Origin: Chloroflexota bacterium
GTDB lineage: Bacteria; Chloroflexota; Dehalococcoidia; Lucifugimonadales; UBA3495
Direction of reading: 5' to 3'
Assembly (NCBI GenBank): GCA_027623675.1
Contig: JAQBVF010000038.1
Coordinates: 1 to 21,313 of the forward strand
DNA: 21,313 nucleotides
Part shown: positions 11,976 to 17,367 of the stretch, piece by piece
Layout: the number at the start of each line of letters is the position of its first letter
How positions within the stretch are numbered: the first letter of the stretch is position 1
Notes under the pieces: model-generated
The model's input: the letters and a program-made list of their open reading frames with translations, nothing else
Told to the model about the DNA's origin: nothing
The model's database searches: none
Position numbers and translations under genes: made by a program

Positions 11976-12773
11976 CTAGATGTATACCTCAGGTTGCGAT
12001 TCCTTGTGAAGGCGCTCTAAGAACGAGTTAGAACGAATCTCCTTACCCAGCCAGTAGGCCACGGTGTTAGAAAGCAGGCTCTTTAGCTCATCGGCCAGCC
12101 CGGCGTCCACGGGTAGCTTACAGGCCTCGACGATCCCGCTGCGGTCCAGCAGGCGCAGCACCTTGAGGGCCCGGAGCGACAGGGGACGGAGATGCGCGTC
12201 GTCGGGGCTGCAGTCCAGGCATAAGGTGCCGCCCACGTTGGGACTGAAGCGGTGGGCGTCTGGCTCCAACTCCTGCCGGCACTCGACGCAATTATATAGC
12301 TCAGGCATCAGCCCCGACACCTGCAGCAGATGGAATTCGAAGAACCTGAGAGGCATGTCGGAGGCCGATTCGGATTCGCGGCCCTTGGTGGCTTCAATGA
12401 CGCGGAGGCAGTCAATCATAAGTTGGAACAGGCCGGGGTTGGGGTTGGCCTCGGCCCCGAAGCCGTCCACCAATTCCGCCAGGTATTGGCCCTTGGTGAT
12501 GGCCGTCAGGTCTTCTTTCAGTTCAGCGAAGCTCTGGGTGACCTCGGCCTGGGATATCACGTCCATGTTGCGCCCGTGGGCCAGAGACATTTTGACCACG
12601 GTCAGAGGCTCCAGGTGGCCGACCAATTTGCTGCTCGACCGCCGGGCCCCCTTGCCCACGGCGCGGACCTTCCCCTGGTCCCTGGTGTACATGGTGACCA
12701 GCAGATCAGCCTCGCCCAACGGCGTGTAGCCGAGGATGATGGCTTCGCAGCGGTAGGTCCTGGGAGGGGCCAT
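11976..12773 (-). CDS. recO: DNA repair protein RecO
   Basis: LGEADLLV...GKVRAVGKGARR OB fold; CVEC...CLDC zinc finger. Confidence 0.95.
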   Translation of the reverse strand: MAPPRTYRCEAIILGYTPLGEADLLVTMYTRDQGKVRAVGKGARRSSSKLVGHLEPLTVVKMSLAHGRNMDVISQAEVTQSFAELKEDLTAITKGQYLAELVDGFGAEANPNPGLFQLMIDCLRVIEATKGRESESASDMPLRFFEFHLLQVSGLMPELYNCVECRQELEPDAHRFSPNVGGTLCLDCSPDDAHLRPLSLRALKVLRLLDRSGIVEACKLPVDAGLADELKSLLSNTVAYWLGKEIRSNSFLERLHKESQPEVYI

Positions 12774-12788
12774 GGTCTGGTCTCCGGG

Positions 12789-13403
12789 TTAAATCTCTTG
12801 CCGGCCCTGGAACGCCCGGGTCAATGTGGTCTCATCAGTGTATTCCAATGATCCGCCCACCGGCAGCCCTCTGGCCAGGTGGGTGACGCGCAGGCCTTCC
12901 CGTCCCTGGTGGCGGCGGATGTACATGGCCGTGGCCTCGCCTTCGAGCGTGGGATTGGTGGCGACCACCATCTCGGCCAGTTCGGGCCGCTCCAGGCGGT
13001 TGAACAGCTCTTTTATCTTCAGTTGGTCGGGCCCAACACCGTTCATGGGCGAAATCACGCCGTGTAGCACGTGGTACAGGCCCCGGTAGGTGCGGGTGCG
13101 CTCCATGGCCAGCACATCAAGGGGGTCTTCCACCACGCAGATGGTCGTGCGGTCACGGCGGGGGTCGGCGCAGACCGGGCAGGGAGAAGCGTCGGTCAGG
13201 TTCTGGCACTCCTCGCAGAAGACGATGCTCTGCTTAACGGAGGTCACGGCGTCGGCCAGGGCGTAGGCGTCCTCGTCGGGCAGCCGGATGATGTAATAGG
13301 CCAGGCGTTGGGCGCTCTTGGGGCCGATTCCCGGCAGCCGGTTAAGCTCCTGCACCAACCGTGCCAGCGACGGCGCCGCGCCGGGTATGTTCTCTTGAGT
13401 CAT
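12789..13403 (-). CDS. recR: Recombination mediator RecR
   Basis: LPGIGPKSAQRLA HhH, CEECQN...CPVC zinc finger, Toprim (ICVVE, ATNPTLEGEATA). Confidence 0.97.
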   Translation of the reverse strand: MTQENIPGAAPSLARLVQELNRLPGIGPKSAQRLAYYIIRLPDEDAYALADAVTSVKQSIVFCEECQNLTDASPCPVCADPRRDRTTICVVEDPLDVLAMERTRTYRGLYHVLHGVISPMNGVGPDQLKIKELFNRLERPELAEMVVATNPTLEGEATAMYIRRHQGREGLRVTHLARGLPVGGSLEYTDETTLTRAFQGRQEI

Positions 13404-13813
13404 GTGGTCGCCGCCGGGAAGCGTTCTAAGATTTCTTTGTCGAATGTCCTGAGGGGCATGTCCAGTTCTTCGGAGAGAGCGGCAATCACTGAATCTGCGC
13501 CGCGCAATCGGTCTCGTTGAGTAACGGCAAGGGAAAGCTCGAGACGGCCACGATCAAGGGGATAAAGAGAAATCTTCCCTGATCGCTCCCATGCCCTGAG
13601 ACTTTGTTCCGCCCTAGCCAAAAGCGCCAACCGATGGGTTGTCGCCTGCCTGCTGATTGAGGCGATCAACTCGGCGATGACTAGCATGGGCAAGTGGAAG
13701 ACGTAACCACCCTGCTCTAGGCCATTGATATATTCCAACGCCTGTTGGTGATTCTCCTCATTTTCCAAGAACGATGCAACTAAGATATTGGAATCAACAA
13801 CTATTGGTTCCAA
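13400..13813 (-). CDS. PIN-domain (VapC-type) ribonuclease toxin
   Basis: Four acidic residues present: D7 (VVDSN), E48 (IAEL), D107 (LRGAD), D125 (TFD). TTG start abuts the upstream TAG; its TGA overlaps the recR ATG. Confidence 0.88.
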   Translation of the reverse strand: MEPIVVDSNILVASFLENEENHQQALEYINGLEQGGYVFHLPMLVIAELIASISRQATTHRLALLARAEQSLRAWERSGKISLYPLDRGRLELSLAVTQRDRLRGADSVIAALSEELDMPLRTFDKEILERFPAATT

Positions 13814-14599
13814 CTATTCCCGTTGCTCCCGAATGGCGTTTACGGCGGAGAGCCCTTTGGGCCAAACTTTGCTGATCTCTTTGGAAAATTCCCTCCAACC
13901 CTCGAATGGGTCTTTGATCGACAAAAGTTTCACCATGAGCGCCAGTTCATCCAGCGCGGCATTAAGCTCGGGCGGGGCGGTGGTCTTTGAGGCCGCACTT
14001 AACGGAACCATAACCGCGTCTTCCAAACCTTCAGATTTGGCTTCACCCAGGACTCGCAGATACTCATGGACGCCATTTTGGGCGATATTTAGGTCTTGGT
14101 TGATGATGCCCGATAGACCTTGAAGCAAAGCGCAACCGCTCCAAGATTTCAAAATCATCGGGAGATAGTCTTTCGCTTTCGAGCCGTGCCTCTTTCGGGT
14201 AGAGAACGCCGATTCGAACGAGTCGGAAGCTTCGTCGTACCGCTCTAAGCTCGAAAGGGCTTCTCCCTTGACCAGCCAATTGGCCGGAGACCCATTGTCG
14301 TGGGCCAGCGCCTGTTCGGCGTGTGCAAAGGCTTCTTCGGCCTGGCCGTCGCGCAGGAGCAGCCGAGACTTCTGGGCCGACAAGAATCCCAGCAAAGGGC
14401 TCTGAAGCCCGGGCAGTGCGGAGACCTCGCGCAGGTATTCTTCCACTCCATCGGCGCTGGCGGTCCCGCTATTGATCGCAGTGACCAGCGACTCCGGCCA
14501 AGGATCGAGAGCGCGGAGTTGCTTCGCCGTGAGCGCCATTTCCGGTCCCAGCGGAGATTCTTCGATTCCGAGCGCTTGCCGAGGCGTCATTGTAGCCAT
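13814..14599 (-). CDS. TPR-repeat protein with an antitoxin-like C-terminal tail
   Basis: TPR-like helices KSRLLLRDGQAEEAFAHAEQALAHD and NWLVKGEALSSLERYDEASDSFESAF; tail WREFSKEISKVWPKGLSAVNAIREQRE. Alternative start ATG 14590. Confidence 0.8.
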   Translation of the reverse strand: MATMTPRQALGIEESPLGPEMALTAKQLRALDPWPESLVTAINSGTASADGVEEYLREVSALPGLQSPLLGFLSAQKSRLLLRDGQAEEAFAHAEQALAHDNGSPANWLVKGEALSSLERYDEASDSFESAFSTRKRHGSKAKDYLPMILKSWSGCALLQGLSGIINQDLNIAQNGVHEYLRVLGEAKSEGLEDAVMVPLSAASKTTAPPELNAALDELALMVKLLSIKDPFEGWREFSKEISKVWPKGLSAVNAIREQRE

Positions 14600-14625
14600 A
14601 TCGTGCCCGGTCCGGATGCCTGGCC

Positions 14626-14925
14626 CTACGTCAGTCCTGGGATGTTCATGCCGCCGGTGACCACGGCCATCTTCTGGGCGGCCATCTCCTGGGCTTTGGT
14701 GGAGGCGTCGTTAACGGCGGCCAGCACCATGTCCTGGAGCAGTTCCACCTCTTCAGCGGCCTCCGGTTCGATGGTGACCGACTCCACGATCTGCTTTCCG
14801 GTCATGACCACTTTCACCGCGCCGCCGCCGGCGCTGCCCTCCACCGTGAGAGTCTCCAGTTCTTCCTGAATCTTCTGTAGCTGGGCCAGTTGTTTCTGCG
14901 CCTGACGCATCATGTTGCGGTTCAT
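14626..14925 (-). CDS. ybaB: YbaB/EbfC nucleoid-associated protein
   Basis: MMRQAQ..Q, EGSAGGGAVKV, ELLQDMVLAAVNDA; ATGA overlap with the dnaX stop. Confidence 0.95.
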   Translation of the reverse strand: MNRNMMRQAQKQLAQLQKIQEELETLTVEGSAGGGAVKVVMTGKQIVESVTIEPEAAEEVELLQDMVLAAVNDASTKAQEMAAQKMAVVTGGMNIPGLT

Positions 14926-16625
14926 TCTTCGATCTCCTCTAAGACTCTGGCGCCCATGCCCAGGGCGGTGCGCACCAGCGAACTCTGTTGAGCTGTTTTT
15001 GCCGTGTTGGCGGTTGCGCCGGGTCCGTTGGCCAGGACCAGGCGGAACTCGTAGGTTGCGCCGAACGAGCCGGTAACCGCCTCGCTCACCCGCCGGCGTG
15101 AGCCTGGGTCGTCCATCTCTTCCTGCATGCGTTCCAGGTTGGCCTTGTTGGAGAAGCCCAACACCATGGTTTGGCCTTCAACGGACACGGCATTGGGTCT
15201 GCAGTCGCGGAGCAGGGCGCCCAGGTTGTATTTCTTGCCCTTGTGCCGGCCCAAAACCTTGACCGCCGCCTGCCATTGGGCGCCGAGCTCCGAGATCGGT
15301 TCGGCGATCGGGGCGGGCCGTCTCTGTGTGTCGGGCTGTCCGGCCGTTTGTCTGGGAGGCGTGGCTGCGGGCCTTGCCGCGGCTGGACGCCCGTCGTTGG
15401 CCGGCTGTCGTTGGGTTGGCTGGCGCTGCGGCGGCGGGGCGGCGGCACGCGGAGGAGCCGCGGCCTGTGGGGGAGGGGTAGCGGTATTGGCCGGAGCGGG
15501 CGGCGAGGCAGTGTCCTCGCAGATCTCCACCACGGCGAGTTCCAAAGGCAGGGTAGACGGCGCATCGTAGCGCATATTTACGTCGCCCCAGACCTTGAGG
15601 CTGCGCACGATCCGCCAGGGTGGCAGGTTGCCCACCAGCTCTTTCAGTTGGGCGGTGACGTCGTCAGGAAGGTCCACGGCGTTCTCTGAGCCCCATTGCA
15701 GGTGCATAACGGCCCGCAGCAGCTCTGTGGACTGCCGGTGCATCTGGCGCAGGTCAACTCCGGCCCAGGCAGCCCGGTTCACCGCCGTAAGCGCCGCGGA
15801 TGTGTTGCCCATGAGCAGATATTTGACCAATTCCAGAGAGCTTTCGCCGTTGTCCAGGCCCAACAGCTCCTCCACCTGCTTTAGGGAGACACTACCGTCG
15901 GAGGAAACAACCAGTTGTTCCAAGAGGTTCTCGGCGTCCCGCAGGCTGCCGGAGGCGTGGCGGGCCACCAGTCGCAGCGCTTCGGGGTCCACGTTCACGC
16001 CCTCGTCCTCGGTGATGTCGGCCAGGCGGCCGTAGACCAGGTCCGAGGCGATGCGGCGGAAGTCGAAGCGCTGGCAACGCGAGATGATCGTCGGCAATAT
16101 CTTATGGGCTTCGGTGGTGCACAGCACAAATATGACGTGGGCCGGCGGCTCCTCCAGGGTCTTCAAGAAGGCATTGGAGGCGGCATCGGTCAACATATGG
16201 GCTTCGTCGATGATGTAGACCTTGCGCAGGCCCTGGGCCGGCGCAAAGTTGACCTTGTCCCGGATGTCGCGTATCTCGTCGATGCCCCGGTTGCTGGCGG
16301 CGTCGAGCTCGATTATGTCCATGAACCGGCCGGCGTTGATCGTTCGGCAGTTGGCGCAGGCGTCGCAGGGGTCGCCGTCCTGTACGTCCAGGCAATTGAC
16401 CGCCTTGGCGATGATCCGGGCCGTGGTGGTCTTGCCGCTGCCCCTGGGACCGCAGAAAAGGTAGGAGTGGGAAACCCGGCCCTGCTTGATGGACTGCCGG
16501 AGTGTGGTGGAGACGTGTTCTTGCCCCACCAACTGGTTGAAGTTGGATGGCCGCCACTTGCGGTAGAAGACCTGGGCGGTGGCGGTGCTGGTATCAGCTG
16601 GGTCGGTTAGAGCCTGGCCGGTCAT
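14922..16625 (-). CDS. dnaX: DNA polymerase III subunit gamma/tau
   Basis: YRKWRP, Walker A GPRGSGKTT, four-Cys zinc module, IIDEAHML, SRCQRF, Pro/Ala/Gln linker and C-terminal domain. Confidence 0.97.
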   Translation of the reverse strand: MTGQALTDPADTSTATAQVFYRKWRPSNFNQLVGQEHVSTTLRQSIKQGRVSHSYLFCGPRGSGKTTTARIIAKAVNCLDVQDGDPCDACANCRTINAGRFMDIIELDAASNRGIDEIRDIRDKVNFAPAQGLRKVYIIDEAHMLTDAASNAFLKTLEEPPAHVIFVLCTTEAHKILPTIISRCQRFDFRRIASDLVYGRLADITEDEGVNVDPEALRLVARHASGSLRDAENLLEQLVVSSDGSVSLKQVEELLGLDNGESSLELVKYLLMGNTSAALTAVNRAAWAGVDLRQMHRQSTELLRAVMHLQWGSENAVDLPDDVTAQLKELVGNLPPWRIVRSLKVWGDVNMRYDAPSTLPLELAVVEICEDTASPPAPANTATPPPQAAAPPRAAAPPPQRQPTQRQPANDGRPAAARPAATPPRQTAGQPDTQRRPAPIAEPISELGAQWQAAVKVLGRHKGKKYNLGALLRDCRPNAVSVEGQTMVLGFSNKANLERMQEEMDDPGSRRRVSEAVTGSFGATYEFRLVLANGPGATANTAKTAQQSSLVRTALGMGARVLEEIEE

Positions 16626-16743
16626 TTCAGGTGGCTTCTCATCTTGGTTGATTCTGCTGCCATGCCTGGCTTGGTTGGCGTGGCCGCACCCGGTCGTTTC
16701 TAATCAGGTTTCAACTAGGGTTTCTACCGGTGACGATACGGGC

Positions 16744-17367
16744 TTAGTTTTTAATATCCAGCGCAGCCAGAGCAGCCCGCTCCTTGGACTGCATCAATGC
16801 TGTTTCGTCTGGTTCCAGGTGGTCGTGGCCGGTCAGGTGCAGTACTCCATGTACTACCAGAAGGGCCAGCTCATGTTCAAGGGGCGCGCCCTGCTCTTCC
16901 GCCTGACGTTTCGCCTGAGGGTAGGACACGATAACCTCGCCCAGGGGTGAAGGCTCTCCAGGCGGCATGATGAAATCGAAGCTGCCCAGATCCTCGTCTG
17001 TCCCAACCTCGGGCGGTTCATCCTCGCCCTCCCAATGGCCGGGATGATCGGCGGAGAAGGACAAAACATCCGTCACCTCGTCCAACCCCCGGTATTGGGC
17101 ATTAAGTGTGCGGACGGTGTCGTCATCGGTGATGACCAGGCTCAACTGCGCGGTCTCAGTTTCGTCGAACTCGTCGTCTAGGGCCACGTCCAGCGCCGCC
17201 GCCGCTATCCTCATCAGCCATTCATCCGCAACGCCTGAGTCTGCGGACGCTCCGCCCGTTAGATCGGTGGATGCGTTCGCATCGTACCCCAGAATATCGC
17301 TGAGGATGCTGGCGGCAAATGGTTCATCTACGGATAGGTAGACCTGCCGGTCGTGTTGGCTGCTCAA
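16744..17367 (-). CDS. ybeY: rRNA maturation endoribonuclease YbeY
   Basis: LNAQYRG...TDVLSF, LGEVIVS, HGVLHLTGHDH metal motif. Confidence 0.95.
   Translation of the reverse strand: MSSQHDRQVYLSVDEPFAASILSDILGYDANASTDLTGGASADSGVADEWLMRIAAAALDVALDDEFDETETAQLSLVITDDDTVRTLNAQYRGLDEVTDVLSFSADHPGHWEGEDEPPEVGTDEDLGSFDFIMPPGEPSPLGEVIVSYPQAKRQAEEQGAPLEHELALLVVHGVLHLTGHDHLEPDETALMQSKERAALAALDIKN

Follow-up and report, generated by a model that had tools for sequence, protein, structure and literature searches.

The window, by which we mean the whole 21,313-nucleotide stretch of DNA analyzed here (positions 1-21,313 of contig JAQBVF010000038.1, assembly GCA_027623675.1, Chloroflexota bacterium), carries on its minus strand a gene for a TPR protein with a conserved C-terminal tail, followed by a gene for a PIN nuclease, both lying within a conserved run of replication and repair genes (Table 1). 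The host is an ocean Chloroflexota bacterium, and the protein family to which the TPR-headed form belongs is one of SAR202-type bacteria. Positions 13814-13816 read cta, the TAG stop of the TPR gene on the minus strand, and positions 13811-13813 read caa, the TTG start of the PIN gene on the same strand, so the two genes abut with a gap of 0. An earlier reading made from the sequence alone (hereafter the sequence-only reading) had placed the 261-residue TPR gene directly 5' of the PIN gene with no gap, and both the ORFs and the junction letters confirm this; the coordinates it gave for the tail, 13814-13915, are likewise correct, comprising the stop codon and the last 33 codons. Downstream, positions 13400-13403 read tcat, or ATGA on the minus strand, so the TGA stop of the PIN gene overlaps the ATG start of recR (a junction of -4 nt). 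Upstream, 26 nt separate the ybaB stop from the start of the TPR gene, and in the ORF list ybaB and recR enclose the pair alone, with no third gene among them.

Table 1. Genes and features of the TPR-PIN locus, in positions of the window
Feature	Position	Strand	Basis
TPR-tail protein gene, 261 aa	13814..14599, including TAG stop	-	ORF, ATG start; homologues; alignment; AlphaFold2
TPR solenoid (predicted), residues ~28-205 of the 261-aa protein	13985..14518	-	Pfam TPR_19, VIA-align, Foldseek
Toxin-binding tail (predicted), residues 206-261	13817..13984	-	Conservation, small-protein homology, co-fold interface
PIN (VapC-like) nuclease gene, 137 aa	13400..13813	-	ORF, TTG start; PF01850; conserved acids
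ybaB/ebfC-like gene, upstream neighbor	14626..14925	-	ORF; same neighbor in 20 genome loci
recR, downstream neighbor	12789..13403	-	ORF; same neighbor in related loci
dnaX, first gene of operon context	14922..16625	-	ORF; conserved context
recO, last gene of conserved context	11976..12773	-	ORF; conserved context

A search for sigma-70-like promoters in positions 12700-17000 returned 0 sites, using a crude consensus that may not suit Chloroflexota, and the 3 terminator-like sites found in the same interval are all on the plus strand. The pair, which has no detected promoter of its own, would be read as part of a dnaX-ybaB-pair-recR-recO operon, and its translation would be coupled to that of recR.

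The predicted TPR head, the conserved tail and the PIN protein

The N-terminal part of the 261-residue protein is predicted to be a TPR solenoid of approximately 200 residues based on the following factors: 1) a Pfam match to TPR_19 at residues 81-126 with 29.1 bits (cut-off 25), the remaining Pfam TPR models all scoring below their cut-offs on this protein and TPR_1, TPR_2, and TPR_8 being found in its homologues; 2) an AlphaFold2 model, built with 94 homologues, which is all-helical (pLDDT 84.7, pTM 0.83); and 3) the fold matches of that model. The best 50 rows from VIA-align were TPR proteins in 50 of 50 cases (Z 13.9-10.2, model residues 28-227), examples being CHIP (7tb1; Z 12.2, rmsd 2.3 over 124 residues) and HOP TPR1 (1elw; Z 11.8), each aligned over model residues of approximately 28-165. 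Foldseek matches listed to rank 50 were TPR domains or designed TPR-type repeat proteins, all of them weak with E-values of at least 0.01, and an ESM Atlas search with the protein returned generic TPR clusters only. Neither Pfam nor NCBIfam gave a match to a DNA-binding domain (AbrB, RHH, Phd/YefM, or HTH). Pfam, the structural model, and the fold search thus speak for the earlier suggestion that a DNA-binding domain has been exchanged for a TPR or other helical head. The protein belongs to a TPR-tail family of 126 homologues of approximately 260 residues, in whose alignment the N-domain residues K77, W108, K111, W153, S154, G164, and Y180 are near-invariant; two relatives (L002 and L078) additionally have sub-threshold Pfam matches to TPR-S PF20308, with E-values of 5e-4 and 4e-3. 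The start used for the 261-residue protein is supported by its N-terminal 20 residues, which align with the homologues, and by a nearly invariant M1. The database gene call for this protein (P0001) is 241 residues long, and the Atlas version begins at residue 21.

The 137-residue protein encoded downstream matches the Pfam PIN family PF01850 with 53.1 bits (cut-off 23.6; E 6e-14), scores below the cut-offs of the NCBIfam VapC models, and has 2fe1 (PAE0151) as its closest solved relative by sequence (E 8.9e-10). The acidic residues D7, E48, D107, and D125, which the sequence-only reading had described as retained, are present in the translation, and an alignment of 24 PINs shows no variation at D7, E48, R55, or D107 and at least 90% conservation at D125. 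In the same alignment, a C-terminal motif, (E/D)ILxR(F/Y)xxA(S/T), is common only to those PINs encoded in the dnaX context.

The last 45-55 or so residues of the 261-residue protein comprise three helices ending in WPKGLSAVNAIREQRE and are the most conserved part of the family alignment, with L225, I228, E241, W246, R257, E258, and R260 invariant. A WPxGxSAVxA(I/V)RExR tail is also found at the C-terminus of small proteins of 86-101 residues from many phyla, and PIN genes bearing an LRGAD motif lie directly downstream of these. By Pfam, the small forms either match PhdYeFM_antitox above cut-off (L029, L083, L088), fall just below cut-off for ParD/DUF6364 (L085-L087, L089) or MazE (L091, 24.1 bits versus a cut-off of 24.7), or match no Pfam family (L090, L092, L093). 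In L029, an 86-residue protein of genome G158, PhdYeFM_antitox spans residues 1-65 (32.3 bits, cut-off 29.8), the C-terminus reads YWPKGLTAVEAIREGRDRV, and a gene for a 133-residue PIN comes next. Because small Phd/YefM-type, ParD-like, and MazE-like proteins encoded just ahead of PIN genes carry the same tail, the resemblance to small antitoxins that the sequence-only reading had proposed is real.

A search with the tail alone, which had been put forward along with that resemblance, was run as a profile, and its matches include small antitoxin-type proteins upstream of PIN genes. Of 1.84 billion proteins searched, 578 representatives matched at E ≤ 1e-3, more than chance would give, and 132 did so at E ≤ 1e-10. 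A Pfam scan of 138 among the best 150 matches assigned 33 to PhdYeFM, 23 to TPR or TPR-like families, 2 to ParD/DUF6364, 2 to odd families, and 78 to no family, and a comparison of the profile with PDB sequences yielded nothing meaningful (best E 0.025, a designed protein). Judged by sequence comparison, the TPR protein and small PIN-linked antitoxins have homologous tails, which represent an unnamed, widespread module covered by neither a Pfam family nor a solved structure. Twenty-two short tail-bearing proteins from a word-index search were considered as further small antitoxins and rejected, each being a C-terminal piece of a TPR-family protein.

Co-folding was carried out with the PIN protein and tail residues 205-261 only, in three runs and with 3 controls. 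The tail had been expected to lie across the PIN active site, and it is predicted to do so, covering all four acids: the predicted interface joins tail residues 214-261 to PIN residues 7-10, 48, 104-107, and 124-126. The ipSAE was 0.92 (0.91, 0.92, and 0.92 in the three runs) and that of the best of the 3 controls was 0.00; the mark applied to this score is reached by 116 of 157 solved complexes versus 2 of 215 mismatched pairs, a rough calibration since custom alignments were used. The runs share at least 99% of their contacts, with a partner pLDDT of at least 89. Since no PDB sequence is related to the tail profile, the passing score cannot be put down to an already solved close relative of the tail, and part of its height may reflect likeness to VapBC complexes, which have been solved as a class.

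VapC genes are normally preceded by a gene for a small antitoxin composed of a DNA-binding domain (Phd/YefM, RHH, or AbrB) and a C-terminal toxin-binding tail. The present pair is probably a VapBC-type, toxin-antitoxin-like module whose antitoxin has a TPR head in place of the DNA-binding head. The PIN protein, presumably toxic, would be an RNase that depends on metal and retains all four active-site acids, and the inhibitor would be the last 45-55 residues of the TPR protein, predicted as three helices ending WPKGxSAVxAIRExR, which would wrap the PIN domain and cover its catalytic pocket in the manner of small VapB antitoxin tails. From the modeled interface we infer that the tail inhibits the nuclease. 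The usual DNA-binding and dimerizing head (Phd/YefM, RHH, or AbrB) would be replaced by TPR repeats, a protein- or peptide-binding fold, so that the antitoxin could not repress its own promoter. The TPR domain may instead provide a regulatory input, wherein a cellular or foreign protein or peptide binds to it and thereby frees the nuclease or destabilizes the inhibitor.

Such a module could also be maintained by plain addiction or persistence, with the TPR head acting as a folding, dimerizing, or half-life-setting scaffold that has no specific ligand, and with the module persisting since its loss, or an imbalance of its proteins, is costly. We regard this as rather unlikely, although no more than the tail is needed to explain the predicted PIN interface and this tail can be joined to interchangeable heads (Phd/YefM, ParD-like, MazE-like, unknown, and TPR). 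The near-invariant residues of the N-domain point the other way, suggesting a conserved surface beyond that of a mere scaffold.

Occurrence, loss and inheritance of the pair

The TPR-headed form constitutes a sizeable natural family, its 126 homologues being accompanied by 23 other long-form genome loci and 24 long-form metagenome contigs. The PIN gene comes next in all 23 of these genome loci besides the window (with a partial PIN in L065) and in 23 of the 24 metagenome contigs, the remaining one ending at the contig edge, and the co-occurrence of TPR homologues with PIN genes implied by the sequence-only reading is therefore borne out. When all tail-bearing proteins are counted, 59 genome loci (62 rows minus the window's own, one duplicate, and one unpublished genome) include 53 with a PIN match that starts within 86 nt downstream, 2 at a contig end, and 4 with none; among 57 metagenome loci, the corresponding numbers are 55 with PIN next, 1, and 1. 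Long forms are found in two contexts only, dnaX-ybaB-pair-recR-recO or argF-pair-der, both of which are conserved operons where stop codons overlap the next start, and these two contexts have no function in common.

The pair is accessory and often lost. It is carried by 18 of 203 genomes of the family and, with the window's own genome included, by 5 of 20 in the genus, and in 5 of 5 same-genus genomes checked the site is empty, with recR directly adjoining ybaB; the genomes with such clean empty sites are 91-92% complete. This distribution, together with the clean empty sites, indicates that the pair is dispensable, and loss that is both clean and frequent argues against strong addiction.

Where the pair is present, it has been inherited largely vertically with its flanks, and its chromosomal position is stable over deep divergence. 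Whole-cassette swapping between lineages was considered and rejected, as the five groups of the flank tree recur in the cassette tree; the AU test of this idea for the genus clade was only marginal (p 0.039). Recombination inside the cassette does hold, and the histories of the N-domain and of the PIN differ (AU p 2.6e-7 and 9.5e-4). The N-domain diverges much faster than its surroundings, identity being 36-57% in the N-domain against 85-90% in the flanks. Values of dN/dS lie between 0.03 and 0.32 across the N-domain, tail, and PIN, and the whole-domain values of the N-domain, 0.11-0.24, indicate purifying selection, and positive selection is not apparent at this level of resolution. GC3 is low relative to the ORFs of the genome, the PIN gene falling in the lowest 3.6% and the TPR gene in the lowest 10%. 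The locus thus presents a toxin-antitoxin-like cassette long resident in an essential operon, yet often lost, internally recombining, and atypical in codon composition.

These patterns bear on what maintains the pair. Purifying selection on every part, and an essential operon that gives expression without autoregulation, are both in keeping with an addiction module. Confinement to two conserved operons whose genes overlap at their stop and start codons, largely vertical inheritance with the flanks, and purifying selection on both genes would also suit a domesticated housekeeping nuclease. In that case the TPR protein would be an adaptor that brings the PIN RNase to a cellular complex, one involved for instance in RNA processing connected with the der or recR operons, and the tail would be more a tether than an inhibitor. 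We find this quite improbable: the pair is dispensable, its two contexts share no function, and its tail is homologous to antitoxin tails and predicted to lie over all four catalytic acids.

Sensing and defense as possible roles

The TPR domain might recognize a phage protein or a stress signal and release the PIN RNase, leading to cell shutdown in a sensor-gated form of abortive infection or defense. Conflict systems commonly use TPR arrays as sensor modules, according to PMC8195603, and the sub-threshold TPR-S matches of two relatives, the accessory distribution with its empty sites, the fast divergence of the N-domain, the differing histories of N-domain and PIN, and the low GC3 of both genes are all compatible with such a role. 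Searches of defense and mobile-element collections argue against it: PADLOC-DB 2.0 gave 0 families for either protein at E ≤ 1; no defense genes lie beside the pair, whose neighbors are dnaX, ybaB, recR, and recO, or argF and der; and viral contigs, phage records, and plasmid records contained no relative of the TPR-tail protein. The constant chromosomal position and the dN/dS of the N-domain likewise count against a role in defense, which we judge unlikely. Long inheritance inside housekeeping operons at two sites is unusual for a selfish or defense module, and a domesticated cellular role would also fit it.

A more specific proposal, to which we give a similarly low probability, casts the TPR domain as a true sensor in a pair hard-wired into a replication and repair operon, wherein a foreign or stress ligand pulls on or destabilizes the tail and frees the PIN. 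In SAR202-type Chloroflexota, this operon would guarantee expression without autoregulation. In one variant, the TPR groove would hold the C-terminal motif of the dnaX-context PINs, creating a two-point lock that is opened by a competing ligand. If the TPR head is a sensor, the pair would offer a compact model of how toxin-antitoxin pairs become signal-gated, and if the sensor reading is true, a new class of sensor-gated toxin-antitoxin immunity. SAR202-type bacteria are abundant in the deep ocean, and to our knowledge almost nothing is known of their stress and phage biology.

Comparison with known systems

The usual plan of a type II antitoxin is a DNA-binding head with a toxin-binding tail, and here the same tail appears on a protein-binding TPR head. 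The present pair resembles VapBC systems in its PIN with four conserved acids and an LRGAD motif, in the inhibitor gene directly upstream of and abutting the toxin gene, and in a tail that is homologous to Phd/YefM-type and related antitoxin tails and predicted to lie over the active site. It differs from them in its TPR head of approximately 200 residues, which takes the place of a DNA-binding head; in having no detected promoter of its own, being embedded in the dnaX-ybaB-recR operon and coupled to recR; and in being inherited at this operon site across a family. In three-component toxin-antitoxin systems such as epsilon/zeta/omega and PaaA2-ParE2-PaaR2, the antitoxin likewise lacks its own DNA-binding domain, but these systems have a separate regulator gene, whereas here there is no third gene and expression apparently comes from the host operon. 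CapRel(SJ46) exemplifies fused or sensor antitoxins, whose antitoxin portion is also the sensor that releases the toxin; the toxin family, fold, and architecture are all unlike those of the present pair, for which sensing is only a proposal.

TPR repeats and a PIN nuclease are also joined in the proposed TPR-GreA/B-C-PIN (TGP) conflict system, described by Kaur, Iyer, Burroughs, and Aravind (eLife 2021, PMC8195603), where one large polypeptide carries both along with a GreA/B-C domain and N-terminal effectors that vary. The pair studied here differs from that description in consisting of two separate small genes, in having no GreA/B-C match in Pfam, and in carrying an antitoxin-type tail. No description of a TPR-headed antitoxin was found in the literature searched, which lay mostly outside subscription journals and supplements, and none appears in the available portions of PMC13092281, 10.1101/2023.12.08.570793, PMC8195603, and PMC10444878; literature matches for VapB with TPR, among those listed, concern eukaryotic VAPB or are unrelated.

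The tail module, with its 578 representative clusters, could become a family model for finding VapB-like partners with unusual heads. A further observation, which goes beyond the sequence-only reading, is that the pair is built into the dnaX-ybaB-recR operon, where it is inherited family-wide and often lost.

The TPR-tail and PIN genes in the window

The pair lies between ybaB and recR in a compact run of minus-strand genes. The stop codon of the 261-aa ORF (TAG) abuts the start codon of the 137-aa ORF (TTG) with no gap, as the sequence-only reading had described. At its other end, the 137-aa ORF shares an ATGA with recR, its TGA stop overlapping the recR start, and the gap between ybaB and the 261-aa ORF is just 26 nt. 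A crude scan of 12700-17000 detected no sigma-70-like promoters and three terminator-like sites, all on the plus strand. The G+C content of the pair (~0.50-0.56) is lower than that of its flanks (0.61-0.67). Within dnaX, the G+C content peaks at 0.70-0.73 over a long Pro/Ala/Gln-rich low-complexity linker (15150-15560).

Coordinates of the pair and its neighbors in the window
Feature	Position	Strand	Type
dnaX	14922-16625	minus	ORF
ybaB	14626-14925	minus	ORF
261-aa TPR-tail gene	13814-14599	minus	ORF
137-aa PIN gene	13400-13813	minus	ORF
recR	12789-13403	minus	ORF
recO	11976-12773	minus	ORF

Pfam identifies the 137-aa protein as a PIN domain (PF01850, 53.1 bits); NCBIfam VapC models match it only below their cut-offs. 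All four acidic residues named in the earlier reading (D7, E48, D107 and D125) are present; an alignment of 24 related PINs shows no variation at D7, E48, R55 or D107 and conservation of 90% or more at D125. Its closest solved sequence relative is the Pyrobaculum PIN protein PAE0151 (2fe1, E 8.9e-10). The same genome holds four further PIN-domain matches (C46:823-1152, C24:461-823, C8:46128-46454 and C42:29780-30157), the last containing an in-frame TAG; tail-profile matches in this genome were limited to the window's locus in the phylum scan.

A single TPR match above cut-off, TPR_19 at residues 81-126, was identified by Pfam in the 261-aa protein. An AlphaFold2 model built with 94 homologues is all-helical (pLDDT 84.7, pTM 0.83). 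Among the matches listed, those from Foldseek are TPR domains or designed repeat proteins of the TPR type, all weak (E 0.01 or worse), and the 50 from an exhaustive VIA-align search (Z 13.9-10.2) are all TPR proteins. Three-repeat peptide-binding modules such as CHIP 7tb1, Sti1 TPR2B and HOP TPR1 fit model residues ~28-165, CHIP with Z 12.2 and an rmsd of 2.3 over 124 residues; because Z under ~13 is common among helical repeats, these matches back a TPR fold and nothing further. The database gene call (P0001) is 241 aa long and the ESM Atlas sequence begins at residue 21, but the 261-aa start is the better call since homologues conserve the upstream 20 residues (14540-14599).

A conserved tail shared with small antitoxins

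Conservation in the 94-sequence family alignment is by far highest over the last ~50 residues, with L225, I228, E241, W246, R257, E258 and R260 invariant. The earlier reading had noted a likeness of this tail to small antitoxins, and scanning 400 genomes from the class bore it out: an 86-aa ORF in genome G158 matches residues 232-260 at 59% identity. Its residues 1-65 are a PhdYeFM_antitox domain (32.3 bits against a cut-off of 29.8), its C-terminal end is YWPKGLTAVEAIREGRDRV, and a PIN gene follows. A tail profile matched 26 of 401 phylum genomes, mostly in ~90-110-aa ORFs with a Phd/YefM-like start, upstream of PINs carrying LRLRGADAVYV. With one genome per species, small tail proteins were found beside PIN genes in Anaerolineae, Armatimonadales, Capsulimonadaceae, Streptomycetaceae, Burkholderiales, Betaproteobacteria and a Bathyarchaeia archaeon (taxa as labelled in their records). 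Their heads are Phd/YefM above cut-off, ParD/DUF6364 below cut-off, MazE (24.1 against 24.7 bits) or none known.

Run against 1.84 billion proteins, a profile from a 25-sequence tail alignment matched 578 representatives at the E<=1e-3 level and 132 at the stricter E<=1e-10. The best 150 matches include 138 new proteins, with PhdYeFM (33), TPR or TPR-like (23), ParD/DUF6364 (2), odd families (2) or no family (78, many of them short fragments). In the family members and small forms scanned, the tail itself falls outside every Pfam family. Some database proteins of 74-210 aa (P0143-P0148, P0149, P0153, P0183, P0201, P0209, P0241, P0256 and P0269), several also with PhdYeFM, match the profile at two or three separate places; they may have tandem tails or be gene calls that fuse adjacent antitoxins. 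Three short proteins (P0132, P0156 and P0232) carry the tail joined to housekeeping-enzyme fragments (sulfatase, RNase HII and ribulose-phosphate 3-epimerase) and are probably chimeras produced by gene calling at contig ends or insertion junctions.

To survey co-occurrence, HMMs from the 25-sequence tail alignment and the 24-PIN alignment were run on all retrieved loci, the detection of some loci being partly circular because the models include those same loci. Among 62 tail rows in genome loci, 56 have a PIN match starting at most 86 nt downstream, 2 are cut by a contig end and 4 lack one (L040, L046, L049 and the second tail of L081). Without the window's own row, the duplicate L037 (= L002) and L057, whose genome is unpublished, the final count is 53 of 59, with 2 contig-cut and 4 without. 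A PIN comes next in 55/57 metagenome loci, L105 being contig-cut and L130 lacking one. TPR homologues do co-occur with PIN genes: a PIN is next in 23/23 long-form genome loci besides the window, one of which (L065) has a partial match only and may carry a broken gene. Partial PIN matches, as short ORFs or split matches beside the tail gene, are seen in L065 (1759-1932), L039, L041, L045, L090 and L093, where the toxin may be decaying while the antitoxin is intact.

Co-folding of the PIN with tail residues 205-261, using the PIN and family alignments, gave a score of 0.92 (runs 0.91, 0.92 and 0.92) against 0.00 for the best of three controls, with at least 99% contact agreement and partner pLDDT of at least 89. 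The benchmark mark was reached by 116/157 solved complexes and 2/215 mismatched pairs, counts that are only rough because the analyst's own alignments were used. For context, VapBC complexes are solved as a class, and sequence search found no PDB relative of the tail profile. The predicted interface joins tail residues 214-261 to PIN residues 7-10, 48, 104-107 and 124-126, taking in all four catalytic acids and placing the tail across the active site as had been proposed. This model supports a tail that would bind the PIN and occlude its active site. By analogy with FitAB and VapBC structures, invariant R257 or R260 may enter the acidic pocket of the PIN.

A probable VapBC-like pair without a DNA-binding head

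The pair is most likely VapBC-like, with the conserved tail of the 261-aa protein predicted to neutralize the PIN RNase. The antitoxin carries a TPR head in place of a DNA-binding one, and expression would be supplied by the host operon, on which an antitoxin unable to autoregulate would depend. VapBC is the closest known kind, but the DNA-binding autoregulatory head, a defining feature of that class, was tested for and is absent, so we file the pair as a VapBC variant and not as a plain member. The TPR-GreA/B-C-PIN proteins of Kaur et al. (PMC8195603) likewise bring TPR and PIN together, but within a single large polypeptide that has further domains, instead of in two genes. No description of a TPR-headed antitoxin was found in the literature searched, which left out most subscription journals.

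The head itself could tentatively be a scaffold or set half-life. In dnaX-context PINs the C-terminus ends ~10 residues past D125 in the motif (E/D)ILxR(F/Y)xxA(S/T) (13400-13432 in the window), which may be a candidate ligand of the TPR groove; PINs paired with small antitoxins have a longer, different C-terminal extension instead. That the head is the adaptor of a domesticated nuclease seems quite improbable.

Genomic contexts and divergence of the cassette

Only two contexts of the long form, the TPR-headed tail protein, occur among the loci examined. The dnaX-ybaB-[TPR-tail, PIN]-recR-recO arrangement is found in the window, in genome G207, in 20 loci from the genomes of 19 species (record labels Dehalococcoidia, SAR202 or Chloroflexota) and in 19/24 long-form metagenome contigs. 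The argF-[TPR-tail, PIN]-der arrangement, with TPR-tail proteins of 347-372 aa and 3-6 canonical TPRs, is found in four genomes (G036, G164, G070 and G071) and 4/24 such contigs; the remaining contig (L116) is too short to assign. Neither set of flanks appears in 33 small-form metagenome loci (L124-L156).

Tail-including matches occur in 18/203 genomes of the window's GTDB family (a raw tally of 36 takes in weak TPR-only matches), and within the genus the pair is present in the window's genome and 4/19 others. In five same-genus genomes without it (91-92% complete), ybaB adjoins recR with 3-120 nt between open frames. The cassette mostly descended with its site, since its tree repeats the five groups of the flank tree, with end branches ~3x longer (median 0.29 vs 0.091). 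At loci whose flanks share 85-90% identity with those of the window, identity is 36-57% for the N-domain, 72-81% for the tail and 51-75% for the PIN. The L066 N-domain groups with L069 and L072 (support 99/100) but its PIN with L070 (91/97), and AU tests rejected each converse grouping (p 2.6e-7 and 9.5e-4; groups chosen after the identity tables and before the trees), indicating recombination inside the cassette. With dN/dS of 0.03-0.32, all cassette parts are under purifying selection, and cassette dS frequently exceeds flank dS.

Patchy presence, a fast-evolving TPR head, internal recombination and atypical composition would suit a defence role, but PADLOC models match neither protein, defence neighbors are absent, no TPR-tail relatives occur in the phage or plasmid sequences searched, and positive selection is not seen at the whole-domain level. 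The sequence-only proposal that the head is a sensor gating toxin release is considered unlikely.

Despite co-divergence, cassette GC3 (0.45-0.78) is below flank GC3 (0.62-0.96) in 19/19 loci (L063-L082 and the window). In the window, GC3 is 0.64 for the TPR gene, 0.56 for the PIN gene and 0.80-0.82 for the flanks; among the genome's 2456 ORFs, the PIN gene falls within the lowest 3.6% and the TPR gene within the lowest 10%. Our guess is that the persistent low GC3 of an old cassette comes from weak codon selection, that is, low translation.

Two contigs of one Dehalococcoidia MAG (L080, whole, and L081:1-900) overlap in the tail region and thus represent one locus. After the PIN gene, and before recR, L081 has an extra 120-aa ORF (534-896) that copies the C-terminal half of the TPR-tail protein, its own tail included; it may represent a second, orphan antitoxin or the remnant of a duplication.
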